A DNA stretch of 32,000 bases from Alkalilimnicola ehrlichii MLHE-1 (lineage in GTDB: Bacteria; Pseudomonadota; Gammaproteobacteria; Nitrococcales; Halorhodospiraceae), in the NCBI RefSeq assembly GCF_000014785.1, contig NC_008340.1:870001-902000 (forward strand), given 5' to 3'. Both the position numbers and the translations under genes were made by a program. How positions within the stretch are numbered: the stretch's first letter is position 1; each line of letters opens with the position of its first letter. This document shows positions 8,702 to 25,351 of this stretch, piece after piece. The notes beneath the pieces were generated by a model, which saw only the letters and a program-made list of their open reading frames with translations, did not search any database and was not told the DNA's origin.

Positions 8702-8808
8702 CAGACAAGAAAAAAGCCGCCCCGGTAACCCCGTAAGCGGCTGTTTTTCTTTGCTTTGTCTGGTAGGCGCGAGTGGACCCGAACCACCGACCCCCACCAT
8801 GTCAAGGT
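8702..8808. repeat. attL: 107-bp direct repeat (copy A) of the tRNA-Val 3' half plus its terminator
   Basis: Identical to 17698-17804 except at two positions (8732 C vs 17728 G; 8779 C vs 17775 T). Confidence 0.9.
8761..8808 (-). pseudogene. Displaced 3' fragment (positions 30-77) of tRNA-Val(GAC)
   Basis: Copy of the anticodon loop through CCA of the intact gene at 17757-17833, with no 5' half. The T-loop reads TTCGGGT instead of TTCGAGT (conserved A58 changed to G). Confidence 0.85.
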
Positions 8809-8902
8809 TTCATAGAACCCCCGTGCCATGCGGGTCACAGTAATAAAAACAGAAAGATAGGCGTGTTACCAAGGAATGGTAGGGTTCTGTTGTGAAAGAT
8901 TG

Positions 8903-8932
8903 TGGTACCATGATGGTCACAGATTGGTCACA
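8903..8932 (+). promoter_or_regulatory. Putative arm-type recombinase/RDF binding sites, attL arm
   Basis: TGGTACCA(8903) tga TGGTCACA(8914) gat TGGTCACA(8925): three octamers phased at 11 bp between attL and the int start. The 23-nt string GATGGTCACAGATTGGTCACACG is repeated exactly at 17657-17679. Confidence 0.6.
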
Positions 8933-8947
8933 CGGGAGCCTGTCGCC

Positions 8948-10282
8948 ATGCCCGCCAAAACACTGGACACCAGCATTACTGATGCCGCCACCCGGCGCTT
9001 CCTGAAGAATGAGCCGGAGCGGGCAACCTTATGGTGTGAGCGGATTACCGGGTTTCACATACTCAAGGTAAAGACCGGGGGCAGTTGGCGGTATCGGTAT
9101 CAGACCGCAGACGGTAAGCGCCGCGTGGCCACCATCGGGCGCTATCCGGCCATGAAACCGCAGCAGGCCGCCGAGAAGGCACTAGCCTGGCGCAATGAGA
9201 ACGTGGACGCGCTGGCAGTAAAGGCCAAACGCACCCGCAATGCCTTGACCGAAGCGCAGAAGGCCGAGCAACGCACGCTGCGGGCCTATCTCGAAGGGCC
9301 GTACGCTAGGTACCAGGAGCGCAAGCGCAGCGGCGCGGAAACCCTGCGCCTCATTCGGCACAACTTCACCGACTGGCTAGACCGGGACATGGCCACGTTG
9401 GACAGCGCAGACGTGAAGGCGTGGCAGGCCAAGCGTGAAGCCGAGGGCCGGGCATACTCCACGCTGCAACGCGCCTATGGTGCGCTGAAAACGGCCCTGA
9501 ACCGCGCCGCGAAACATGACGACCTGCTAGACGCGAACCCCCTGCGAGATGTTCACCTTGAGGCCCCACGGTTTGACGAGGTGGACAAGCAGGTAAAAGC
9601 GGAGCAGACCGCCCGCCGCCTGCTGAGTGACGAGGAAGTGACCGGGCTGCATGAGGGCTTGCGAGCCTTTGCGGATGAGTTGCGCCGCCAGCGCCGTAAC
9701 AGCCGAGCGCATGGCAAGCCGGATCTGCCCGACCTGGACGCGGTGGACTACCCGCATTGGTTTATTCCTTTCTGCCACGTTGCCCTTTATACCGGACTGC
9801 GACCGGGTGACTTGTACGCGCTCACCTGGGCGGAGCTGAACCCCACGTTCGGGCGGCTGAACGTGATTCCTCAGAAAACCCGTCACCACCGCAACCCCGC
9901 CCGCGTGACAATGGATTTAGTGCCGGAGTTGCTGGAGGTGGTGCGGGCCTGGTGGGCGCAGCAGGGCAAGCCTGACACCGGGCTAGTGTTCCCCTCACCC
10001 GTTACCGGCTTGCGGATGGACAAGAAAGCCCACCTGAAAGCCTGGCGACGTGTGAAGCGCCTTGGTGGGCTGCCCGACGATCTGGACTTCTACACCTTGC
10101 GGCACAACTTTATTTCCAAGCTGGTGGCCGCTGGCGTGCCCCTGCTGACAGTGGCGCAACTGGTGGGCCACAAATCGGCGGGGATGATCGAACAACATTA
10201 CGGCGACCTGTGCCCCACCGTAGCGGCTGATGCGTTGGCCGTGTTTTCCAAGTCTGTGACACCGAAGCAGGAGGCGGTATGA
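8948..10282 (+). CDS. int: Tyrosine integrase, P4-type (N-terminal DUF4102 arm-binding domain)
   Basis: N-terminus ...ATRRFLKNEPERATLWCERITGFHILKVKTGGSWRYRYQTADGKRRVATIGRYPAMKPQQA matches the P4-integrase arm domain pattern. Catalytic signature TGLRPGDL ... YTLRHNFISKL ... LVGH ... EQHY. Start taken at ATG 8948; the ORF-track start at 8876 runs over the arm sites. Confidence 0.9.
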   Translation: MPAKTLDTSITDAATRRFLKNEPERATLWCERITGFHILKVKTGGSWRYRYQTADGKRRVATIGRYPAMKPQQAAEKALAWRNENVDALAVKAKRTRNALTEAQKAEQRTLRAYLEGPYARYQERKRSGAETLRLIRHNFTDWLDRDMATLDSADVKAWQAKREAEGRAYSTLQRAYGALKTALNRAAKHDDLLDANPLRDVHLEAPRFDEVDKQVKAEQTARRLLSDEEVTGLHEGLRAFADELRRQRRNSRAHGKPDLPDLDAVDYPHWFIPFCHVALYTGLRPGDLYALTWAELNPTFGRLNVIPQKTRHHRNPARVTMDLVPELLEVVRAWWAQQGKPDTGLVFPSPVTGLRMDKKAHLKAWRRVKRLGGLPDDLDFYTLRHNFISKLVAAGVPLLTVAQLVGHKSAGMIEQHYGDLCPTVAADALAVFSKSVTPKQEAV

Positions 10283-10797
10283 CGGCAGGATGGGCAACCC
10301 CGTTTAACTGGACGGATGAGCAGGCCCGCGAAGTGGTGGCGGAGGTTGGCGAGCGCACGGGCACGCAGGAGCAGCGGGAGCAGTTCGCCCGCGCAGTGGG
10401 AGCAGTGCTGAAGCGCGGCCAAACGCGGCTGTTTATGCCCGACCTGGCAGGCCAGGCCAAGGGCATGCACCAGGGGGCAGCCACGGTACTAGAATCGCTC
10501 AACGCCGAAGCGGCTGACCTTACCGACGAGGAAGCCGACCAGTTGCGTGCGCTGGTGGCTAAGGTGGCGGAGGCCACAGCCGAGGCGGGCACGATGGAGC
10601 GGCGGGGAGCCAGCAAGAAAGACCACCAGACCCTAGCCGAGCTGGCGCAGGTATGGCGCTTTGCGTTCGGGCGCTGGCCAAGTGCCAAGCCCACCGCCCC
10701 CTTCATGCGCGTGGTGCTGTGGATCAATGCACGAAATTACGCCGATCTGCCGACCGGAAACGGCGCTAAGGCTTATATCGGCCAGGGGACCAAATAA
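10279..10797 (+). CDS. Hypothetical protein, translationally coupled to int
   Basis: ATG 10279 overlaps the int stop (ATGA) and is preceded by AGGAGG (10269-10274). 172 aa, acidic and helical, no motif I recognise. Followed by an AT-rich stretch. Confidence 0.6.
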   Translation: MTAGWATPFNWTDEQAREVVAEVGERTGTQEQREQFARAVGAVLKRGQTRLFMPDLAGQAKGMHQGAATVLESLNAEAADLTDEEADQLRALVAKVAEATAEAGTMERRGASKKDHQTLAELAQVWRFAFGRWPSAKPTAPFMRVVLWINARNYADLPTGNGAKAYIGQGTK

Positions 10798-10875: not shown

Positions 10876-11064
10876 ATGTCAGCACAACCCGCCTTTATGC
10901 GGCCACAACAGGCCGCCGATTACCTGGGCATTACGCGCCGCCACCTGTACAACATCGCGGAGCGTGACCCCGAGTTTCCCCGCAAGATTGTATTTTCTAC
11001 CCGCTGCGTAGGGTGGCGCCGGGAAGCCATCGACGAATGGCTAGCCGCCAAGGAGGCGGAATGA
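10876..11064 (+). CDS. alpA: AlpA-family helix-turn-helix regulator / excisionase-like protein
   Basis: 62 aa. RPQQAADYLGITRRHLYNIAERDPEFPRKIVFSTRCVGWRREAIDEWL is the typical Phage_AlpA pattern. Confidence 0.8.
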   Translation: MSAQPAFMRPQQAADYLGITRRHLYNIAERDPEFPRKIVFSTRCVGWRREAIDEWLAAKEAE

Positions 11065-11255
11065 CCTGGATCACCCCCCACGCTGCCGTGTCCGAATACG
11101 GCATCCCCTTGGAGCGTATCGAGGCCGCCATTCTGGCCGGTGAAATAGCCGTTCGGGTGGCGTGCGGTGCGCGGGTGATTGGCCGCGCCGAGGTGGAAGC
11201 GCTTCGATTGAAAATGATGAGCGAACGCCGGGAGGCGTGCGACGGATGCGACTAG
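11061..11255 (+). CDS. Second small excisionase/MerR-like HTH protein
   Basis: ATG 11061 overlaps the alpA stop and is preceded by AAGGAGG. 64 aa. ...AVSEYGIPLERIEAAILAGEI... resembles excisionase-type HTH proteins. Confidence 0.55.
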   Translation: MTWITPHAAVSEYGIPLERIEAAILAGEIAVRVACGARVIGRAEVEALRLKMMSERREACDGCD

Positions 11256-13249
11256 TAAATGAAAACGCCCCCGCCGGCGGGCAACCGGCGAAGGGCGCAA
11301 ATGTGAGCGGGCGGCTCAATGGGAATTATAGCAGCACCGACACCGCCGCGCATCTTGCCGAAAACGGTATTCCGGTATTCCCGGTAAACCTGTCCGAGCC
11401 GAATGCAGACGGGAAACGGGAAAAGACCCCGTTAACAAAGCATGGCCATCTCGACGCCACAACAGACGCCGAAACGGTGCGGCAATGGTGGCGGCGTTGG
11501 CCGAAAGCTATACCCGCTGTTCCGACTGGGAAGGCATCCGGCATTGATGCCCTGGACGTAGACCCCGACGGTTACGAATGGGCCGCCGAGCATTCCGATT
11601 CACTGATGATGGCCCAGCGCATTCACCACACTGAGCGCGGAAAGCATTACCTGTTTCGACACACCGATGGCGTGCGCAATTCCAACGGGAAGATTAGCGC
11701 CGGTATCGATGTGCGCGGGGAAGGCGGGTGGATCGTCTGGTGGCCTGCAAAGGGCCTAGAAGCGCATGGAGAGCTTGCAGACGTATCCGACGCACCCGAA
11801 GCCCTTGCCGATCTGATGCGTGGCGTGCGGAGCAGCACAGAGCGTGACAGCGCTCCTGTTGCTGCCGATGGGGCCGTGATTCCCGAGGGCCAACGGGATA
11901 GCACCTTGACACGGGAGGCCGGGCGACTGCGCCGGTATGGCTACAGCGAATCGGAAATGCTGGCCGCGTTGCACGCGATCAACTCCCACCGTTGCCAGCC
12001 GCCGCTAGACGCCGATCAAGTGGAGAAGATTGCCCGAAGCGTTGGCCGATACGATCCGGCGCATGAGTTCACGCCAGACAGCGATGAACCGGCCAGCCCT
12101 GAGCCGTTCGACCTTGTGGCGGCCAGTGTGGGCGATCTGATACGCACGCCACCGCCGCCCCGCCGTTGGCTGGTGCATGAGCGCCTGCCGCTGGACGTGG
12201 TGGCCCTGCTGGCGGCTGCTGGCGGTACGGGTAAGAGCATGGCCACCTTGCAGCTCGCGGTGAGCACCGCCACCGGCTGGCCTTGGTTCGATATGGAGAT
12301 CAGCGAGCCGGGGGCGGTGCTGATGGTGTCGGCAGAGGATGACCGCGACGAAATCCACCGCCGCCTGTCCGTGGTGCTGGAGCATTACGCCGACGATGCC
12401 GACCCGTTCGCCGTTGACGCGTTCAGCGAGTACCACGACCAGCTAGAGCGCCGCCTGTTCATTCTGGACAGGGTGGGCGAGGACAACCGCCTAACCGCCA
12501 AGATCGACCGGGAGACGTTGCGCACGGGGTTTGCCAATCGGGTGATTGCCACCGCCGAGGCGATGCCCGAGCCGCCCGTGATGATCGTGCTTGATCCCCT
12601 GAGCCGGTTCGATGGTGGCGACCCGAACGACAACAGCGACGGAACCCGCTTGATCGAGGCCGCCGAGCATATCCGCAAGGCCACGCGGGCAACCGTGCTG
12701 CTACCCCACCACGTCGCCAAGTCCAGCATGAAGGATTCCAGCGCCGGACAGGAGGCCGTGCGCGGTGCGTCGGGCCTGGTGGATGGTGCCCGGTGGGTGG
12801 GCCTGATGCGCGGGATGAATGACGAGGACGCGAAGGAGCACGGGATCAGCGAGGACGATGCCGGGCGCTATGTGCGCTTCAACACCCCGAAAGCCAACTA
12901 TTCCGCCCCGTGGCCCGGTCTGTGGCTGGAGCGGCGCAAGGGTGGGGTGTTGGCGGCCACGCACCTGAAGCCGCAAAAACTGGCCAACAAGGAGCGCAAG
13001 GCCGATGCGGAATATCAGGAGGTGGTGCGCCGTATCACCAAGCTGTTGCAGGACAAGGGGGCGATGCCCAAGCGCCGGATTGAGGACGAATGGGGCGGGA
13101 CAACCAACGTCTTGAAGGCCGGGCAAAAGCGCGTGCGCGACACCATCCACCGGGCGCTAGACGAGGGGCATCTCGTGGTGCAGACCACCGGCGAGGGCAA
13201 GGAGGTTATTGGTGTCCCCGACGCCTGGTTAGAGAGGGCCGGGCAATGA
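11246..13249 (+). CDS. Bifunctional primase-polymerase / PriCT / AAA_25 (RepA-like) replicase
   Basis: Start taken at ATG 11246 (MRLVNEN...). PrimPol N-domain: GIPVFPVN...KTPLTKHG..DAT...WW...VPTG..SGIDALDVD. PriCT-1-like: IPEGQRDSTLTREAGRLRRYGY...CQPPLDADQVEKIARSV. Walker A: AAAGGTGKS. Confidence 0.85.
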   Translation: MRLVNENAPAGGQPAKGANVSGRLNGNYSSTDTAAHLAENGIPVFPVNLSEPNADGKREKTPLTKHGHLDATTDAETVRQWWRRWPKAIPAVPTGKASGIDALDVDPDGYEWAAEHSDSLMMAQRIHHTERGKHYLFRHTDGVRNSNGKISAGIDVRGEGGWIVWWPAKGLEAHGELADVSDAPEALADLMRGVRSSTERDSAPVAADGAVIPEGQRDSTLTREAGRLRRYGYSESEMLAALHAINSHRCQPPLDADQVEKIARSVGRYDPAHEFTPDSDEPASPEPFDLVAASVGDLIRTPPPPRRWLVHERLPLDVVALLAAAGGTGKSMATLQLAVSTATGWPWFDMEISEPGAVLMVSAEDDRDEIHRRLSVVLEHYADDADPFAVDAFSEYHDQLERRLFILDRVGEDNRLTAKIDRETLRTGFANRVIATAEAMPEPPVMIVLDPLSRFDGGDPNDNSDGTRLIEAAEHIRKATRATVLLPHHVAKSSMKDSSAGQEAVRGASGLVDGARWVGLMRGMNDEDAKEHGISEDDAGRYVRFNTPKANYSAPWPGLWLERRKGGVLAATHLKPQKLANKERKADAEYQEVVRRITKLLQDKGAMPKRRIEDEWGGTTNVLKAGQKRVRDTIHRALDEGHLVVQTTGEGKEVIGVPDAWLERAGQ

Positions 13250-13458
13250 GCGGGCAGCGGGCAAGCAACGGGCAACGGGCAAGCGGGCAAATTGCCCGCC
13301 GGAAGTGCCTGCCCGCCTTAGAGCGCACAACCACGCGGGTTTCCAGCGGGCAACGGGCAAAACCCTACTTTGCCCGCGCCTATCGGGAAACCCGCGCCAC
13401 ACAAGGGCGGGCAGCGGGCAACGGGCAACCCCCTACGGGGGCGGGGCAGTAATTGCCC
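13241..13458. repeat. Iteron cluster, putative origin of replication
   Basis: At least 17 copies of GGGCA(A/G) / its complement TTGCCC / CTGCCC, mostly as (A/G)CGGGCAA. Sites seen at 13241, 13252, 13259, 13270, 13277, 13285, 13292(rc), 13309(rc), 13348, 13355, 13370(rc), 13409, 13416, 13423, 13444, 13453(rc). Two palindromes: GCGGGCAAATTGCCCGC and GGGGCAGTAATTGCCC. The cluster starts at the replicase stop codon. Confidence 0.65.
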
Positions 13459-13727: not shown

Positions 13728-13884
13728 AGGTGTTACGAAAGGTAACGCTTGCGCTCGAATCAGCCGCCGGTGGCGGGGCAGGGAGGCCCTAGACCCCCAC
13801 AGAACGAAAGACCCGTACCCTAATGGGGTAGGGTTAGGGAATTGTAAGTACCTGTTTGTGAATGCAATAATGCCGCCACCGTGG

Positions 13885-13908
13885 TATGCTGTGACCAATA
13901 TGTGACCA
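13885..13908 (+). promoter_or_regulatory. Possible extended -10 promoter (TGGTATGCT) overlapped by an operator made of two phased TGTGACCA octamers
   Basis: TGnTATGCT at 13882-13890. TGTGACCA at 13890-13897 and 13901-13908 is the reverse complement of the arm-site octamer, with the same 11-bp phasing. Located about 20 nt upstream of the ATG at 13930. Confidence 0.4.
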
Positions 13909-13929
13909 CCAGCGGAAACTATCACGGCA

Positions 13930-14301
13930 ATGGGCACCACCACACAAGGCAAACCGCGCCAGATACCCCGGCAATACTCCAACGATTGGTTGGAGCGCCT
14001 GGACGGGCGCACGGCGATTGCCAAGGCGGTGAATGATCGCCTTCATCATTTGGTGCGTGACCTTGGAGGCCCCGACGCCCTCAGCTACCAGGAGCAAAGT
14101 ATCTGCCGCCGCATTGTCTGGCTGGAGGCGCAGATAGAAAGCCGGGAGGTGGCGCTAGCGAAGGGTGAGGATGTAGACGAGGCCCGCCACGTTGCCAACA
14201 TCAACACGCTTACCGGGTTGCTGAAGGCGGTGGGCCTGGAGCGCCGCTCGAAAGATGTGCCCGACCTTGCGCAATACCTGGCCAGCAAGGAGGCGGGCTA
14301 A
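13930..14301 (+). CDS. Hypothetical protein; terminase small subunit suspected from position only
   Basis: 123 aa, helical (LDGRTAIAKAVNDRLHHLVRDLGG...LSYQEQSICRR...). Lies two genes upstream of TerL. No diagnostic motif. Confidence 0.35.
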   Translation: MGTTTQGKPRQIPRQYSNDWLERLDGRTAIAKAVNDRLHHLVRDLGGPDALSYQEQSICRRIVWLEAQIESREVALAKGEDVDEARHVANINTLTGLLKAVGLERRSKDVPDLAQYLASKEAG

Positions 14302-14537
14302 TGGTCATGTGCGCTGCCTGTAAGCACTTCCCCGGCAACGGCCAACTGTGTCCGAAGGCCAAGCGCCACGCCACGCACCACCCGCGCAAGTGTGACAAAT
14401 TCACCGGCCACCGCCTGAGCTTCGCGGTGCTGCAAGCCCGTTCCCTCGCCACGTTCGCCCGCCGCCACCTGACCCCGGCCAGTTACCAGCGGGTATTGCG
14501 CGATGCCCACCGTCTGGCGGAAGAGGTGAGGCGATGA
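14301..14537 (+). CDS. Small Cys/His-rich protein (putative zinc-binding)
   Basis: 78 aa. C4-x2-C7-x9-C17-x13-C31 with a His-rich stretch (RHATHHPRKC). Start overlaps the upstream stop and the stop overlaps the TerL start. Confidence 0.45.
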   Translation: MVMCAACKHFPGNGQLCPKAKRHATHHPRKCDKFTGHRLSFAVLQARSLATFARRHLTPASYQRVLRDAHRLAEEVRR

Positions 14538-16063
14538 CCAACATTGTCGAAGCCTTCACCGACCCGCAGTTGCTAGGCCAGTCGTTTGGCGAGGATACCC
14601 GCGAGGCTTGGCGTGCTGTCCTGTCAGGCGCGTTCGCCCTGCCGATGGATGATGACCGCCTTGCCCTGTTTAAGCGGCTGTCAGGCGACCGTGAGCCGCC
14701 TCAGCGGCAGGCGCGGGAGCTATGGGCAATCGCGGGTAGGCGGAGCGATAAGACCCATACCGCAGCCGGTATTGCCGTATACCTGGCGACCATCGGGGCG
14801 GAGCTGGACGGCACCCTGGCCCGCCTGACCGCTGGCGAGCGTGGTGTGGTTCAGTTGCTTGCGGTGGATCGCCAACAGGCCAAGGTTGCGCTTGGGTACG
14901 TTCGCGGCCTGTTCGCTGATAGCCCGGTCATGTCCAGCCTGGTGGAGAAGGAGAACACCGAGGGCGTTTTGCTCCGCAACGGCGTATCTATTGAGGTGGC
15001 CACCAACAGTCACCGGGCCGTGCGTGGGCGCACTCTGTTGGCGGCCATTCTGGACGAATGCGCCTTCTTCAAGGATGAGGCGACCGCAACCCCCGATGTA
15101 GAGGTTTACCGCGCCCTGGTGCCTTCTCTGGCGACCACCGGGGGCATGCTTGTCGGTATCTCCAGCCCCTACGCCCGCCGGGGGCTGCTCTACAGCAAGT
15201 GGCGCAAGCACTACGGCAAGCCCGGTGATGTGCTGGTGGTGCAGGGCGGAACACTGGACTTCAACCCCACCCTTGATCCCCGCGTTATCGCGGAGGCGGA
15301 GCAGGATGATCCCGAGGCGGCCAAAGCCGAATGGCATGGGCAATTCCGTGCTGATGTTGAGGGTTTTGTAACACGCGAGGCCGTAGACGCCTGCACCGCA
15401 CCGGGCCGCATTGAGCTACCGCCGGTGGCTGGCGAGCGGTACACGGCCTTCGTGGACCCGTCTGGTGGCTCCAAGGATGCGTTCACGCTGGCGATCGCCC
15501 ACCAGTCTGATGGGCTGACCGTGGTGGACGCTATCCGCGCTCAGAAACCGCCGTTCAGCCCGGAGGCGGTGGTTAAAGAGTTCGCCGGTCTGCTGAAGGA
15601 ATACAAGATCAGCAAGGTGGTGGGCGATCGTTACGGCGGTGAGTTTCCTCGCGAGCTGTTCCGAAAACAGGGCATTGCCTACAAGCTATCTGATCGGCCT
15701 AAGTCTGACCTGTATCGCGACATGCTCCCGTTGCTCAATTCTGGGCGCGTGGAGTTGCCGGACAATGGCCGATTGCAAAACGAATTGACGAGCCTGGAGC
15801 GGCGCACCAGCCGCGCCGGGAAAGACTCAATAGACCACCCGCCAAATGGCACCGACGATGTGGTTAACGCGGTGGCCGGGTGTATAATTGAGGCAGCAAA
15901 ACCCAAAGCCGTTCCCCGCGTGCGGCGGATGGGTGATTCGATCAGTTCCGGTTCCAATTCTGGTTCCAGCGTTCTGGATCGAATCGCGCAAGGTCAGAAA
16001 GCCAGCGGGAGGTTGGCGAGTACGCGCCGAAGTTTTCTGCGAGATGCAGACGGTTTCGGTTGA
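14534..16063 (+). CDS. terL: Phage terminase, large subunit
   Basis: Walker A-like AGRRSDKT, Walker B LAAILDECAF. C-terminal RNaseH-like nuclease motifs FVDPSGGSKDAFTLAIAH and DDVVNAVAG. GAGGTGAGG RBS precedes ATG 14534. Confidence 0.85.
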   Translation: MTNIVEAFTDPQLLGQSFGEDTREAWRAVLSGAFALPMDDDRLALFKRLSGDREPPQRQARELWAIAGRRSDKTHTAAGIAVYLATIGAELDGTLARLTAGERGVVQLLAVDRQQAKVALGYVRGLFADSPVMSSLVEKENTEGVLLRNGVSIEVATNSHRAVRGRTLLAAILDECAFFKDEATATPDVEVYRALVPSLATTGGMLVGISSPYARRGLLYSKWRKHYGKPGDVLVVQGGTLDFNPTLDPRVIAEAEQDDPEAAKAEWHGQFRADVEGFVTREAVDACTAPGRIELPPVAGERYTAFVDPSGGSKDAFTLAIAHQSDGLTVVDAIRAQKPPFSPEAVVKEFAGLLKEYKISKVVGDRYGGEFPRELFRKQGIAYKLSDRPKSDLYRDMLPLLNSGRVELPDNGRLQNELTSLERRTSRAGKDSIDHPPNGTDDVVNAVAGCIIEAAKPKAVPRVRRMGDSISSGSNSGSSVLDRIAQGQKASGRLASTRRSFLRDADGFG

Positions 16064-16104
16064 TTGATGAAAGCGGGTTTTCACTTCAACCGAGGTAACG
16101 AGTT

Positions 16105-17244
16105 ATGACGCATCAAGTGAAGGAAATGGTCGAGGGCGTGGCCCGAGACTTCGAGGGGTTTAAGTCCCGCCAGGATCAAGCCCTGTCCGACCTGGACGAG
16201 CGCGTGAAGCGTGCCGAGACCCTGGCCGCCCGCAAGGTGGGCATGACCGTGGACAGCGGCGCAGGCATGGGGCCGGAGACCAAGGCGGTACGCGAGTGGC
16301 TGCGTGGTGGCGACTTCGACCGCAAGGCCCTGAGCATCGAGGATGACGGCCAAGGCGTGACCGTGCGCAGCGATTGGGCGGATCAAATCTTTAAGAAGAT
16401 TCGCGAATCCAGCCCCGTCCGCCAGGTGGCTAATAACCTGTCCACCAATTCCAACGAATTGGAGGTTCTGGTTGACCGTGGTGAACCGGACTCAGCGTGG
16501 GTGGCTGAAAAGGGCGACCGCGATCCGACTGCCGCTAGTTTCATGTCTCGGCATAAGATCGCCGTGCATGAGCACTACTCGTATCCGAGCGTAACCCAGC
16601 AATTCCTGGAGGATAGCCGGCTCGACCTGGAGCAGTGGTTGCAGGATAAAATCGGCACCCGTTTCGGTCGGCAGGAAGCCGAATCCTTTATCAAGGGTGA
16701 CGGCAACGGCAAGCCTCGCGGCATTCTGGATTACGACACCGTGCCGGATGGTGATTTCGAGTGGGGCGCTGATCCTGCCGATTACACCATCGGGGCGATC
16801 TATACCGGCGAATCGGGTGACTTCCCGAGCAACAATCCCGATAACGTGCTCTACGATGTTGTGGACGCGCTCAAGTCGGATTACCTGGGCAATGCACGGT
16901 TCATGATGAGCCGCGCCACGATGAACAAAATTCGGAAGCTGCGGGATGGTGACGACCGTGCCTTGCTCCAGATGAGCCTGGCGGAAGGTCGGCCCAATAC
17001 CCTGCTGGGGTTCCCGGTGGTGATTGCCGAGGATATGCCGGACCCGGCGGCGGATTCCGAGTCGATCCTGTTCGGTGACTTCGGCCAGGCGTACACCATC
17101 GTTGACCGGATCGGGGTAAGCGTGCTGCGTGATCCCTACACCCTGCCCGGCTGGGTCCGCTGGTACGTCCGCAAGCGTATCGGCGGGGCGCTGACCAACC
17201 CCGAAGCCCTGAAGGCCGTGGTGTTCGGCAGCGAGCCGAGCTGA
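16105..17244 (+). CDS. Major capsid protein, HK97 family, with N-terminal coiled-coil (delta/scaffold-like) segment
   Basis: 379 aa. N-terminal helical region (KEMVEGVARDFEGFKSRQDQALSDLDERVKRAE), then the typical HK97-family core (...IFKKIRESSPVRQVANNLSTNSNELEVLV..., ...GKPRGIL..., ...MSRATMNKIRKLRD...). Confidence 0.85.
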   Translation: MTHQVKEMVEGVARDFEGFKSRQDQALSDLDERVKRAETLAARKVGMTVDSGAGMGPETKAVREWLRGGDFDRKALSIEDDGQGVTVRSDWADQIFKKIRESSPVRQVANNLSTNSNELEVLVDRGEPDSAWVAEKGDRDPTAASFMSRHKIAVHEHYSYPSVTQQFLEDSRLDLEQWLQDKIGTRFGRQEAESFIKGDGNGKPRGILDYDTVPDGDFEWGADPADYTIGAIYTGESGDFPSNNPDNVLYDVVDALKSDYLGNARFMMSRATMNKIRKLRDGDDRALLQMSLAEGRPNTLLGFPVVIAEDMPDPAADSESILFGDFGQAYTIVDRIGVSVLRDPYTLPGWVRWYVRKRIGGALTNPEALKAVVFGSEPS

Positions 17245-17400
17245 TGAACACCGCCCGCTCCCGAGGCGGCAATATCGGGAGAGTTCCCCGCAGCCACCGC
17301 GGCGGCGCAAGCCGACAGGGTGGACGCGGCAACGCCCTGGCCGTGTCTCAGAACAAGGGCGGGCGGTATGGTTCCACCGCTGCGAAGAGACGGACCCACG

Positions 17401-17433
17401 CCCCCGAGCGAGAGGCTGCGGGGGCATCTTTTT
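17401..17433 (+). terminator. Intrinsic terminator after the capsid gene
   Basis: CCCCCG(17401-06)...CGGGGG(17419-24) stem followed by CATCTTTTTG. Confidence 0.5.
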
Positions 17434-17449
17434 GTATGGAGGTGCAACC

Positions 17450-17697
17450 ATGCTGACAGCCGAGGAACGTCTATGGGTGGCCGCACTGGCCCGGTATGTA
17501 CAGGACGCCCGTGCGCCCAGTGCCTACGGTGACGAGGGCGAGGCGCTGGCGGACCTGGAGGGCGATGCCGTGATACTGCGCCGCCTGGCGGAGCTGGCGG
17601 GCTATGACCCCGAGGCCACGGTGGTGGCGGTGAGGCGGGAGGTGTTGTGTTACCCCGATGGTCACAGATTGGTCACACGAAGCCCTGAGCGTGTGAC
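17450..17697 (+). CDS. Hypothetical protein (possible head-completion/adaptor); the 3' end is undefined because the frame has no stop before attR
   Basis: ATG 17450 lies 6 nt after GGAGGT. The frame stays open through the arm sites, attR and the tRNA until 18217. The end coordinate given is the element boundary, not a stop codon. Confidence 0.35.
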
Positions 17698-17699
17698 CA
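17648..17699 (+). promoter_or_regulatory. Putative arm-type binding sites, attR arm
   Basis: TGTTACCC(17648) cga TGGTCACA(17659) gat TGGTCACA(17670), with the same 11-bp phasing as at attL. One inverted octamer TGTGACCA (17692-17699) abuts the identity block. Confidence 0.6.
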
Positions 17700-17804
17700 G
17701 ACAAGAAAAAAGCCGCCCCGGTAACCCGGTAAGCGGCTGTTTTTCTTTGCTTTGTCTGGTAGGCGCGAGTGGACTCGAACCACCGACCCCCACCATGTCA
17801 AGGT
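17698..17804. repeat. attR: 107-bp direct repeat (copy B), forming the 3' half and terminator of the functional tRNA-Val
   Basis: See attL. The block ends 2 nt 5' of the anticodon loop (tRNA position 30). Confidence 0.9.
17705..17745 (-). terminator. Intrinsic (bidirectional-looking) terminator of tRNA-Val
   Basis: AAAAAA-AGCCGC-CCCGGTAACCCGGTA-AGCGGCT-GTTTTT. The stem is AGCCGC/GCGGCT with an inner CCGG/CCGG pair. A-run and T-run flank it, and the minus strand reads the stem followed by TTTTTT. Confidence 0.75.
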
Positions 17805-17833
17805 GGTGCTCTAACCAGCTGAGCTACGCGCCT
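17757..17833 (-). tRNA. tRNA-Val (anticodon GAC)
   Basis: The reverse complement reads AGGCGCGTAGCTCAGCTGGTTAGAGCACCACCTTGACATGGTGGGGGTCGGTGGTTCGAGTCCACTCGCGCCTACCA. Acceptor AGGCGCG/CGCGCCT, D arm GCTC/GAGC, anticodon stem CCACC/GGTGG with loop TTGACAT, T arm GGTGG-TTCGAGT-CCACT, encoded CCA. 77 nt. Confidence 0.95.
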
Positions 17834-23185: not shown

Positions 23186-25351
23186 ATGTCCCAATACGAA
23201 CACCGCCCGACGTCTTCGGACCGTGATGACGAGATCGAGATCGGCCGTCTGGTCGAGATCCTGCTGAACGGCAAATGGATCATTGCCGGTCTCAGTGCAT
23301 TGGGGCTGGCCCTGGGCGGGTTCTATGCCTACACCAGCACACCGGTCTACAGCGGCGACATGCTGCTGCAGGTGGAGAGTAAGCAGGCGACGCTACCGGG
23401 GCTGTCGGAGATGCTGGGCGGCGAACAGCAGGTGCCCACCAGTGCGGAGGTGGAGCTGCTGCGATCGCGCATGGTGGTGGGTTCGGTGGTGGACCAACTG
23501 GACCTGGCCGTGCAGGCTCGGCCCTTGCCGACGGACTGGCGCGAGGCGGTGCTGGGTGTGAGCAACCCCCGGCGCCACATTGAGGTGGGCCGCTTCGAGG
23601 TCTCGCCGGCCCTGGAGGGCCAGACGTTCATCGTCCGTGTGCTGGGCGAGGGGCAGTTCGCCCTGCTTGAGGACGACGGCGGGGCGGAACTGGCGCGCGG
23701 GCGGGTGGACGAGACCCTGGTGCTGGACAACCCGGACGGCAGCTCGCTTCAGCTCTTTGTCCACGTGCTCACCGGCGAGCCGGGCGACACCTTCGAGCTG
23801 GTGCGCCAGCCGCGGCTGCGCGCCATTCAGAACCTGCGCAACGGCTTGAACGTCAGTCAGCGCGGTGAGTCGGGGATCCTGGAGGTCACTTACGAGCACC
23901 CGGACCGCCAGCTTATCGAGGAGGTCCTCAACACCCTGGGTATGGTCTACGTGCGCCAGAACGTGGAGCGTCGGACCGAGGAGGCGGCCCGCAGCCTGGA
24001 GTTCCTGGAGGAGCAGCTGCCACAGTTGCAGGACCGACTGCAGCAGGCCGAGGATGCCTTCAACGCCTTCCGCCGCGAGCACCAGGCGGTGGATATGGAT
24101 GAGAACACCCGGGTGATGCTCAGCCAGTTGGTCGAGGTGGAGAGCGAACTCCAGGCCTTGCGCCTGGAGGAGAGCGAGAAGAGCCTGCGCTTTGGTCGCG
24201 AGCACCCGCAAATGCAGTCGCTGCGCCAACGGCGCCAATCGCTGGAGACCCTGCGTGCCGAGCTGGAGGAGGAGCTGGGGGAACTGCCGGAGCGCCAGCA
24301 GCAGTTGGTGCGCCTGCGCCGCGAGGTGGAGGTGAACACCCAGCTCTACACCAACCTGCTCAACACCGCCCAGGAGTTGCGGATCTCCCAGGCCGGCACG
24401 GTTGGCAATGCCCGCGTGGTGGATGACGCGGCCGTGGGCTTCAATCCAGTGGCGCCGCAGACCACCCTGATTATGGCGCTGAGCCTGCTCCTGGGCGGCA
24501 TGCTGGGGGTGGGCACCGTGTTCGGCCGCGAGATGCTCCGTCGCGGGGTCGAAGACCCGGACGCCCTGGAACTGGAGGTGGGCATCCCGGTCTACGCCGT
24601 GGCGCCCCACAGCCCGGCGGCCCTGCAGCTCGAGAAGAAGGGCCGTCGACAGCGGACCCAGGTGCCGCTGCTGGCGGAGAAAAACAGCCAGGACCCGCTG
24701 GTGGAGAGCCTGCGCAGTCTGCGCACCAGCCTGAACTTCGCTCTGCTTAACAACGCCCGTAACGTCCTGGCCCTGACCAGTACCGGCCCGGGGGAGGGCA
24801 AGACCACCCTGTCCGTCAACTTGGCGGCGGTCCTGGCCCAGAGCGGCCAGCGGGTGCTGCTCATCGATACCGACATGCGCCGGGGCCATCTGCATATCTT
24901 TCTGCAGAACCGGCGGCGCGAGCCGGGCCTGTCCGGGGTGCTGGCCGGGCAGGCCACACTGGAGGAGGCGGTCTCACGCATCAGGGAGAATCTCGACGTG
25001 CTGCCCGCCGGCACCTTCCCGCCGAACCCCTCGGAGCTGCTGATGCAGGAGGGATTCGGCCGGCTGATCGAGGAGCAGCGCCAGCGCTATGACCTGGTGA
25101 TCCTGGACACCGCGCCAGTGATGCCGGTCACCGACGGCGTCCTGGCGGCCGCCCACGCCGGGCCGGTGTTCCTGGTGGCCCGGGCGGGCTATGTGACCAC
25201 CCGCGCGGTGCAAAGCACCATCTGGCGGCTGGAGAAGAACCAGATCGACACCACCGGGCTCGTGGTCAACGACCTCAACCCGAAACGGAGTGGGCGCTCG
25301 AGCGATTACTACTATTATCAGTACCAGTACAAGGCGCGGGCCAAGGACTGA
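23186..25351 (+). CDS. wzc: Tyrosine autokinase / polysaccharide co-polymerase (PCP-2a)
   Basis: N-terminal TM and Wzz domain, a long coiled coil, a second TM. BY-kinase Walker A TSTGPGEGKTT, A' LLIDTDMRR, Walker B LVILDTAP. C-terminal Tyr cluster SSDYYYYQYQYK. Confidence 0.9.
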   Translation: MSQYEHRPTSSDRDDEIEIGRLVEILLNGKWIIAGLSALGLALGGFYAYTSTPVYSGDMLLQVESKQATLPGLSEMLGGEQQVPTSAEVELLRSRMVVGSVVDQLDLAVQARPLPTDWREAVLGVSNPRRHIEVGRFEVSPALEGQTFIVRVLGEGQFALLEDDGGAELARGRVDETLVLDNPDGSSLQLFVHVLTGEPGDTFELVRQPRLRAIQNLRNGLNVSQRGESGILEVTYEHPDRQLIEEVLNTLGMVYVRQNVERRTEEAARSLEFLEEQLPQLQDRLQQAEDAFNAFRREHQAVDMDENTRVMLSQLVEVESELQALRLEESEKSLRFGREHPQMQSLRQRRQSLETLRAELEEELGELPERQQQLVRLRREVEVNTQLYTNLLNTAQELRISQAGTVGNARVVDDAAVGFNPVAPQTTLIMALSLLLGGMLGVGTVFGREMLRRGVEDPDALELEVGIPVYAVAPHSPAALQLEKKGRRQRTQVPLLAEKNSQDPLVESLRSLRTSLNFALLNNARNVLALTSTGPGEGKTTLSVNLAAVLAQSGQRVLLIDTDMRRGHLHIFLQNRRREPGLSGVLAGQATLEEAVSRIRENLDVLPAGTFPPNPSELLMQEGFGRLIEEQRQRYDLVILDTAPVMPVTDGVLAAAHAGPVFLVARAGYVTTRAVQSTIWRLEKNQIDTTGLVVNDLNPKRSGRSSDYYYYQYQYKARAKD

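Follow-up and report, generated by a model that had tools for sequence, protein, structure and literature searches.

An inverted copy of the arm-type att dimers before the packaging operon of a tRNA-Val satellite in Alkalilimnicola ehrlichii: a candidate operator linking recombination to late gene expression

Why would a sequence of the kind expected on the recombination arms of an integrated element recur, in inverted orientation, directly before its packaging genes? The question is raised by a satellite of 9.1 kb (the length between its att repeats), integrated in tRNA-Val of Alkalilimnicola ehrlichii and bearing the gene order int-alpA-primase-terS-terL-capsid, which lies within the 32-kb stretch of DNA analysed here (below, the window). 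An initial annotation had suggested that a single protein serves both the arms and the late promoter and couples recombination to expression of the capsid genes. The core of this proposal is supported by covariation of the two sites in 13-20 of 52 related elements: a DNA-binding protein of the int module appears to recognise both the arms and the packaging promoter, which would link recombination state to late expression. Of the three candidates then named, one, a second helix-turn-helix (HTH) protein, drops out, and on sequence alone both the integrase (Int) and AlpA stay in contention. We argue below that the recombination machinery, most likely Int, probably switches the packaging genes.

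Octamer dimers at the att arms and before the packaging genes

The octamer occurs in three clusters, two of them on the arms of the element and one before its packaging operon, and in further single copies:

13890-13908, + strand: inverted arm-type octamer pair TGTGACCA-ATA-TGTGACCA, the proposed operator at the start of the packaging operon
8914-8932, + strand: P' (int-proximal) arm dimer TGGTCACA-GAT-TGGTCACA, from repeat and motif comparison
17659-17677, + strand: P (far) arm dimer TGGTCACA-GAT-TGGTCACA, with the orientation and 23-nt sequence of the P' dimer
17692-17699, - strand: single inverted exact octamer adjoining the att repeat, from the motif scan
8832-8871: two degenerate P'-arm copies, GGGTCACA at 8832-8839 and inverted TGTTACCA at 8864-8871, conserved in the related loci L382 and L383

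The arm dimers are embedded in a 23-nt sequence, GATGGTCACAGATTGGTCACACG, which is identical at 8912-8934 and 17657-17679 and is the only strong motif common to both arms. In all three clusters the phasing is 11 bp, the octamers forming direct repeats about one helical turn apart. The promoter dimer is the reverse complement of the arm dimers in 18 of 19 positions, since the spacers differ at one base (ATA vs ATC). The exact reverse complement with 11-bp spacing that had been claimed for it is thus correct for the octamers and the phasing and off by one base in the spacer. With flanks included, the inverted match to 8911-8932 comprises 22 nt at 91%. The first ATG of the packaging operon, at 13930, is 21 bp past the end of the dimer; the P' dimer, which follows a conserved TACCAT, ends 16 bp before the int ATG, beside the Shine-Dalgarno sequence GGGAG.

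Exact copies of TGTGACCA number eight in the window, compared with 0.72 on average and at most four in dinucleotide shuffles, none of 100 of which reached eight. Seven of the eight fall inside the three clusters, and the eighth (25192-25199) is a single copy inside the host open reading frame (ORF) 23186-25351. A direct repeat CTGGTCAC-N4-CTGGTCAC at 2664-2684, likewise in a host ORF, is a coding repeat for Leu-Val-Thr. Both this repeat and the octamer at 25192-25199 are treated as chance occurrences. At 17670-17699, the last P-arm unit and the extra inverted octamer form a 10-bp inverted repeat, TGGTCACACG-N10-CGTGTGACCA, which is also found in the related locus L387.

The gap before the packaging operon (13728-13929) is 202 nt long, and in its 3' half the GC content drops to 0.48-0.52 (13800-13949), compared with 0.58-0.72 around. 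Two candidate promoters were found in this region:

13881-13889, + strand: extended -10-like element TGGTATGCT (TGnTATGCT), abutting the dimer, from a consensus match
13842-13871, + strand: sigma-70-like alternative, TTGTAA-18-AATAAT, its -10 preceded by TG, from a consensus scan (9/12 matches)

Both the sequence and the GC profile agree with the earlier description of a dimer placed right after an extended -10-like element in an AT-richer gap of 202 nt. With TGGTATGCT as the predicted -10 the dimer spans about -6 to +13, and with the TTGTAA-18-AATAAT promoter about +12 to +30; under either predicted promoter it is at a repressor-type operator position. In particular, since it follows the -10 and covers the predicted start, its location speaks for repression, not activation.

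A second block of sequence, ATGG(GG)TAGGGTT followed by TTGTGAA, is present in direct orientation in the P' arm (8876-8896) and before the packaging -10 (13822-13872). Its P'-arm copy is kept in the related loci L382-L385, and the block alone is statistically not significant. A second factor, for example AlpA or IHF, might bind there.

Recurrence of the link across related elements

The large terminase subunit (TerL) of the satellite has 7062 homologues at E <= 1e-20, many of them on contigs of 8-10 kb, and its clade appears to be a lineage of terminases found mostly in small integrated elements. We took 160 loci with a TerL homologue from genomes and viral contigs and kept the 52 in which a tyrosine integrase gene, on the strand of terL, precedes it by 1.5-9 kb; since loci were selected through TerL, all prevalence figures apply to the TerL clade. 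Usually int is followed in these loci by alpA and primase, and the 52 loci are one large int-alpA-rep-terS-terL family of Gamma- and Alphaproteobacteria.

About 370 bp around each int start were compared with the whole locus; the integrase ORF starts are approximate, which makes the tests conservative. Plain 8-mer counting was swamped by GC-rich codon words, and was replaced by tests for ungapped local matches (high-scoring segment pairs, HSP) and for phased dimers. In many loci the top matches were of three kinds: the repeat of the att core, the short phased repeat in direct orientation near the far att end, and an inverted copy of this phased repeat just before terS, which in many loci lies 270-500 bp upstream of terL. 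The sequence of the motif differs from element to element, as seen from int-proximal motifs that recur inverted before terS:

L015: TGCTACCTATTTGCTACA
L052: GCTACCCTGGCGCTACCC
L067: GCGGACACGGCGCGGACA
L037: TGTTGCCCCGCCGTTGCCC
L003: TTTATGATACGTAGGATGGAACGTA
L088: TGCTGCCCCGATGCTGCCC
L081: TTTTGGTGTGATA

In the HSP test, the best inverted match in the zone from terL-800 to terL-250 was evaluated against an empirical null. Inverted matches reached p <= 0.05 in 14 of 51 loci and p <= 0.01 in 8 of 51 (binomial probabilities 1.4e-7 and 4e-8, respectively), whereas direct matches stayed at chance level (2/51 and 0/51). The strict test required an int-proximal pair of 8-mers with at most one mismatch, a spacing of 10-12 and the same pair elsewhere in the locus. 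An int-proximal phased dimer was detected in 37 of the 52 loci; it recurs 200-800 bp upstream of terL in inverted orientation in 13 and in direct orientation in none, and a direct copy is found on the far arm in 15. Chance would yield about 0.07 loci in the inverted class, as estimated from the match criteria of this test. If looser matches are admitted (L003, L004, L005, L011, L019, L078, and L081), the count rises to about 20/52. The region before alpA, taken as a control, showed no enrichment of the arm motif, with 2/26 and 0/26 at p <= 0.05. Based on the two tests and the lack of enrichment before alpA, we consider the link between the arm motif and the terS promoter a conserved, covarying trait of the family.

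The position of the promoter copy is also similar among these elements. In the positive relatives the motif ends 12-46 bp upstream of the terS ATG, and these start codons are backed by a conserved N-terminus, YxxDWL, right after them. Most Gammaproteobacterial members have a -10-like hexamer directly 5' of the motif, namely TATGCT in the window, TAATCT in L003, TAAACT in L015, and TATCAT in L081. The TerS proteins of L081 and L082 are 97.5% identical and their upstream regions can be aligned, so that TGGTATGCT corresponds to GGTATCAT in L081 and to a perfect extended -10, TGTATAAT, in L082. Directly after the aligned -10, the arm motif is present in L081 only, whereas L082 and L083 have unrelated sequence there. 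We also considered a leaderless terS with the -10 TATCAC (13917-13922) and the dimer as an AlpA- or Q-like loading site between -35 and -10, for which the AlpA binding element of P. aeruginosa is a model (PMC7969949). This reading was rejected, as the relatives lack a -10 at that place and the alignment of L081 with L082 puts the -10 upstream.

The arm motif goes with the int module. The P'-arm architecture is preserved in full in relatives whose Int is 84, 77, and 67% identical (the contigs of L382-L385 end just after int, and the comparison is of the P' arm), and where Int identity is 60-66% both arms still have TGGTCACA dimers. In L388 a degenerate inverted dimer, TGTCACCA-ATA-TGTAACCA, is located 46 bp upstream of terS after a homologous -10 region. 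By comparison, L081, L082, and L083 carry other integrases and other arm motifs; the homology between the window and L083 spans 14289-17650 and ends just before the far-arm dimer. In these motif-switch comparisons alpA and the ORF coupled to int change together with int.

Exact-pattern scans of metagenome and viral contigs yielded 218 contigs with the same dimer, and the only recurrent family among the neighbouring genes is the tyrosine integrase (52 loci vs 7 for the next family). Many of these integrases are unrelated, and their N-termini are not homologous to that of the window Int. All that the scan indicates is that int-att regions typically have such phased octamers; it does not identify the protein that reads them. 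On one 4-kb metagenome contig from a high-GC organism (L247), the TGTGACCA dimer lies upstream of a terS/terL pair of the window TerL clade, and a degenerate inverted dimer, GGGTCACA-GCG-TGGTCACG, follows about 130 bp further; the two are at 743-761 and 892-910, and the arms are off the contig.

Candidate proteins for the dimers

The int module and the gene next to it encode four proteins that have to be considered:

8948-10282, + strand: tyrosine integrase with an N-terminal arm-type DNA-binding domain (PF13356 Arm-DNA-bind_3, 5.8e-8, residues 11-84; PF00589, 8.3e-19; phrog_1)
10279-10797, + strand: ORF of 172 amino acids (aa) translationally coupled to int, with no family match, conserved beside int
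10876-11064, + strand: AlpA/Vis-family winged-helix protein (PF05930, 5.9e-9; phrog_66)
11061-11255, + strand: 64-aa ORF with no family match, the second HTH protein of the initial annotation

Our preferred reading, to which we assign a probability of about 0.55, is that the arm-binding domain of Int binds both arm dimers and the packaging operator. Int possesses an arm-type domain, the motif, which is distinct from the core, is found within about 150 bp on both sides of the crossover, and it tracks the int lineage. The presence of dimers on both arms, the extra inverted copies and the long, nearly invariant units also point to Int. The PF13356 domain occurs in the integrases of L015, L088, and L382-L388 as well; the window Int itself is 100% identical to protein P0121 of A. 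ehrlichii (CP184336.1). The choice of Int over AlpA as the binder, repression as the sign of the control and the manner of its relief described below are all inferred.

The site layout corresponds to P4-type Int arm repeats rather than to the filament of a Cox-type excisionase, the parallel that had been drawn originally. Like the window element, P4 is a tRNA-integrating satellite with an arm-type Int domain, a Vis/AlpA homologue and a primase. In both elements the core is flanked on either side by dimers of the same orientation, each built from a crisp unit of 8-12 bp that is repeated in tandem at a distance of one helical turn. P4 Vis binds both attP and PLL, and according to Polo et al. (1996, J Mol Biol) it reportedly also regulates the P4 late promoters; P4 Int is said by Piazzolla et al. 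(2006) to repress Pint. The arm repeats of P4 attP, TTGGGGGCATNN (annotation of NC_001609), include a dimer that precedes the int ATG by 16-39 bp and a lone inverted copy, a layout that the window shares. Unlike the window element, P4 lacks a further arm repeat at Psid and PLL, its late promoters, and encodes neither a terminase nor a capsid protein; the two integrases have no detectable pairwise similarity. The same sequence comparison, applied to P4, found no crisp motif linking attP to the late promoters.

A second precedent comes from IntS of KplE1 and of ICEMlSym R7A, whose arm sites overlap the -10 and start of the int promoter and where Int represses (PMC2951348, PMC11963761), matching the int-proximal dimer here. 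The five arm sites of R7A IntS have the experimental consensus TGKTGGTATC (PMC11963761), which has a TGGT core in common with GATGGTCACA / ATTGGTCACA. In both systems Int was shown to regulate its own gene only, whereas the window has an extra dimer at a second promoter about 5 kb away. Taken by themselves, the window arm dimers are ordinary P4-type arm sites, and repression of Pint by Int or an excisionase via attL is already known.

With Int as the binder, the following mechanism can be proposed. The Int arm-binding domain would occupy the tandem dimers of both att arms and help to build the recombination complex. At the P' dimer Int would autoregulate int, as suggested by the location of this dimer so close to the int ATG. 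The dimer 13890-13908, a third and inverted copy of the arm-type sites, would be the operator over the start of terS-orf78-terL-capsid, and Int bound to it at PterS (about -6 to +13) would block initiation or clearance by RNA polymerase. The packaging and capsid genes would be off as long as free Int is available, which would be the case while the element is integrated or is becoming established in a new cell. After helper-triggered excision and replication, many copies of attP, each with at least four arm sites plus core sites, would compete for Int; with Pint repressed in the attP configuration, Int would be drawn away or shut off, and PterS released. A repressed Pint in the attP configuration has been proposed for R7A IntS (PMC11963761), and int autoregulation is an established paradigm for tRNA-associated integrases (PMC2951348). 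In its widest form the proposal is that Int, with one dimer each at attP, Pint, and PterS, is the maintenance repressor of the late operon in a large, undescribed family of proteobacterial satellites that have no cI or Stl; we put it forward tentatively, at somewhat less than even odds.

Several observations weigh against Int in this role. The dual binders of att and a distant promoter known to us (Apl, Cox, Vis, RdfS, TorI) are all excisionases, not integrases. The sites of recombination directionality factors (RDFs) are direct repeats one helical turn apart (PMC7498355), as are the dimers described here. Every relative examined has inherited int, the coupled ORF and alpA as one unit, and covariation therefore cannot separate their products; a search for discordant int/alpA pairs found no informative pair. 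No promoter copy was detectable in about 60% of the relatives. It is absent from the packaging promoters of L082 and L083, which share a genome with L081, and from L386 and L387, Int relatives whose late module consists of protease and capsid without terS/terL. The promoter calls are consensus matches only, equal in number in the element and in shuffles. As to the mechanism, negative autoregulation of int buffers free Int, so that titration alone is not obviously sufficient, and derepression may need an additional input, for example from AlpA.

AlpA (10876-11064) could itself be the protein in question, acting as the RDF on the phased att-arm repeats and as a regulator at the packaging promoter that times terminase and capsid synthesis relative to excision. 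Such wiring is known from Apl of phage 186, from Cox of P2, HP1, and WPhi and from P4 Vis, where one small protein has sites at att and at a key promoter and couples excision to transcription. AlpA is present in all relatives checked, including L088 and, as an uncalled gene, L386. It is homologous to P4 Vis (25% identity, E = 3e-8) and matches the excisionase domain TIGR01764 at 3.7e-5, below the cut-off of that family. An excisionase-family protein is thus encoded, and phased direct repeats at att and promoter are what excisionase operators look like: besides the spacing of RDF sites, Apl binds att and pR-pL (PMC7498355), RdfS binds attP and its own promoter (PMC11963761), and TorI represses PintS from attL (PMC2951348). 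The covariation fits AlpA as well as Int. Nevertheless, we consider AlpA, the main rival of Int, an unlikely, if far from negligible, candidate. Apl, Cox, and Vis bind sites of low specificity that are arrayed in groups of at least three, as a rule on a single arm, and act on early, lysogenic or own promoters; the window has no such array: each of its clusters consists of two near-perfect units, the dimers of the two arms are identical, inverted extras are present (at 17692 and 8864), and the target is a terminase/capsid operon. RDF sites usually form a head-to-tail array on one arm, and RDFs bind with low specificity (PMC7498355) or no consensus (PMC11963761), Apl requiring three adjacent operators (PMC7498355), whereas the units here are highly specific. 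AlpA as the reader would leave the arm-binding domain of Int without arm sites, and the layout equals that of the P4 Int arm repeats. Moreover, the AlpA proteins of phage-inducible chromosomal islands (PICIs) autoactivate their own promoter (PMC6092414, PMC11773190), and the motif is not enriched before alpA; the operator position implies repression, whereas PICI AlpA is an activator, and AlpA of EcCICFT073 does not control int (PMC6092414).

The other alternatives are much less probable. The 172-aa ORF (10279-10797), or another product of the int module, might bind all three clusters: it directly follows int with overlapping stop and start in the window, L082, L083, L015, and L382-L388, and is co-inherited with the motif. 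It has no match to a DNA-binding or other family and no precedent, and would again deprive the Int arm domain of sites, which makes it quite improbable. Slightly less credible still is pairing in trans of the int and terS leaders through complementary stretches of 19-27 nt before their ribosome-binding sites, as a toggle between integration and packaging. Both copies lie 12-46 nt upstream of start codons, the promoter copy is inverted relative to the int-proximal one (13 vs 0 loci in the strict test, 14 vs 2 in the HSP test), and L015 has a perfect 18-nt complement. However, pairing does not explain the identical far-arm copy; mismatches fall at positions variable between units and are not G:U-compatible, the four in 25 of L003 leaving runs of 4-6 bp; much of the motif may stay untranscribed given the abutting -10; and the Rfam scan gave no support. 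We assign very little weight to a pac- or cos-type packaging site read by TerS, with the likeness to the arms being secondary. Small terminases do bind repeats near their own gene, and the dimer is 21 bp upstream of the TerS-position gene; on the other hand, the motif tracks the int module, the recurrent neighbour of the dimer is a tyrosine integrase, and TerS is excluded as the binder because nearly identical (97.5%) TerS proteins of L081 and L082/L083 go with an operator after the -10 in L081 only. The second HTH protein (11061-11255) was rejected on similar grounds: it is 90.5% identical to orf63 of L082 and L083, which have no TGTGACCA anywhere, and is effectively excluded by this near-identity in elements without the motif. 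Finally, the relatives without a detectable promoter copy would suit a chance match or a functionless recombination scar, which we regard as practically negligible, since a 16-base pattern is expected about 4e-6 times per 9-kb element, and 13-20 of 52 elements have different motifs in fixed orientation and position (about 0.07 loci expected; binomial p about 1e-7).

The satellite and the meaning of the link

The element is bracketed by a 107-nt direct repeat (8702-8808 / 17698-17804, 98% identical), and all genes inside it are on the + strand. Apart from the int module, its features are as follows:

8702-8808, + strand: left copy (attL) of the 107-nt repeat, made up of the displaced tRNA-Val 3' end and its terminator
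17698-17804, + strand: right copy (attR) of the 107-nt repeat, which overlaps the functional tRNA-Val(gac) gene (17757-17833, - strand)
11162-13249, + strand: primase-helicase (Prim-Pol / PriCT_1 / AAA_25)
13239-13436: four or more iterons of the GCGGGCAACGGGCAA type immediately following the primase-helicase gene, with an inverted repeat at 13334-13396
13930-14301, + strand: 123-aa gene in the TerS position, first of the packaging operon, no family match
14301-14537, + strand: 78-aa ORF (orf78), no family match
14534-16063, + strand: TerL, large terminase subunit (phrog_2, 6e-23)
16105-17244, + strand: HK97-type major capsid protein, the last large gene of the operon (PF05065, 1.4e-84)

The iteron region is probably the replication origin of the element. 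The att repeat runs about 55 nt past the 3' end of tRNA-Val (8702-8756 / 17698-17752) and includes the terminator hairpin and T-run of the tRNA gene; thus, the element duplicates the terminator together with the tRNA end. TerL and the capsid protein, as named in the initial annotation, are confirmed by their family matches, whereas its TerS-like gene has none; the name terS is based on position only, that is, on the conserved place of the gene and on homologues upstream of the same TerL clade. Searches of families and of PDB gave no match for the TerS-position protein, the 78-aa ORF or the 172-aa ORF, and a PDB search with Int gave nothing. No portal, protease, connector or tail protein was found among the element proteins in family and phrog searches, and an Rfam scan of the element identified the tRNA only.

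The genome of A. ehrlichii holds four mosaic satellites, in tRNA-Val, -Ala, -Glu, and -Leu, which swap blocks of int/alpA, replication (PrimPol vs DUF3987) and packaging modules. L081, L082, and L083, the mosaic relatives on CP184336.1 (A. ehrlichii), are in other tRNA genes than the window element; L081 is interrupted by an insertion sequence (DDE_Tnp_1) and has lost the capsid gene. L015 and L083 carry a complete tRNA-Leu of their own; the far-arm dimer is placed between this gene and a core that falls in the anticodon loop of the tRNA-Leu of the host. This layout, seen at 12960-13160 and 4110-4170 of L015 and at 12098-12300 and 2809-2890 of L083, implies that the host gene is split and functionally replaced by the copy of the element.

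The element has the properties of a satellite: it is small and tRNA-integrated, encodes int, alpA, its own replicon and packaging genes, and has no full virion set. Its order int-alpA-primase/rep-packaging, the size of about 9 kb, the tRNA site and the absence of a cI/Stl-type repressor are as in Gram-negative PICIs and capsid-forming PICIs (cfPICIs) such as EcCICFT073 and EcCIMP1 (PMC6092414, PMC11773190). Its TerL belongs to a clade that is nearly missing from cultured phages and at most 27% identical to any of them. The best match of this TerL among 50,697 deposited phage records is at 27% identity. For a cfPICI, which encodes portal, protease, capsid, connectors, TerS and TerL, the gene set is too short, comprising only the TerS-position gene, the 78-aa ORF, TerL, the capsid protein and two small ORFs. 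With its own TerL and major capsid protein and no recognisable portal, protease or connector, the element is neither a classical PICI nor a cfPICI. Identity with a VEIME was rejected, as VEIMEs are reported to have no capsid genes (PMC9618062).

The earlier statement that no such wiring had been described in satellites went too far, since it overlooked P4 Vis, an AlpA homologue required for P4 excision (PMC6092414, PMC11963761). In the literature searched we found no link between arm sites and a late promoter described for PICIs, and no description of an arm-type dimer at the promoter of a distant structural operon that covaries across a satellite family.

The existence of a master repressor in Gram-negative PICIs has been called 'unclear' (PMC6092414), and for one large family an arm-site operator on the packaging promoter would offer a testable answer to the missing repressor. 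Uncontrolled terminase expression from an integrated element would be harmful, and a link between arm sites and packaging genes therefore has an obvious purpose. If the Int reading is correct, the recombinase would double as the lysis-lysogeny switch, and packaging would be licensed only after excision and replication draw Int away. The role of arm sites would then grow from recombination and int autoregulation to a distant structural operon, and integration state, copy number and terminase expression would be linked. If AlpA is the binder, the sites described here would still be the first family-wide map, backed by covariation, of dual sites of the Vis/Apl type in satellites. For the annotation of such elements a simple rule emerges: the arm dimer of an element, found inverted 12-46 bp before terS, predicts the late promoter and its operator.

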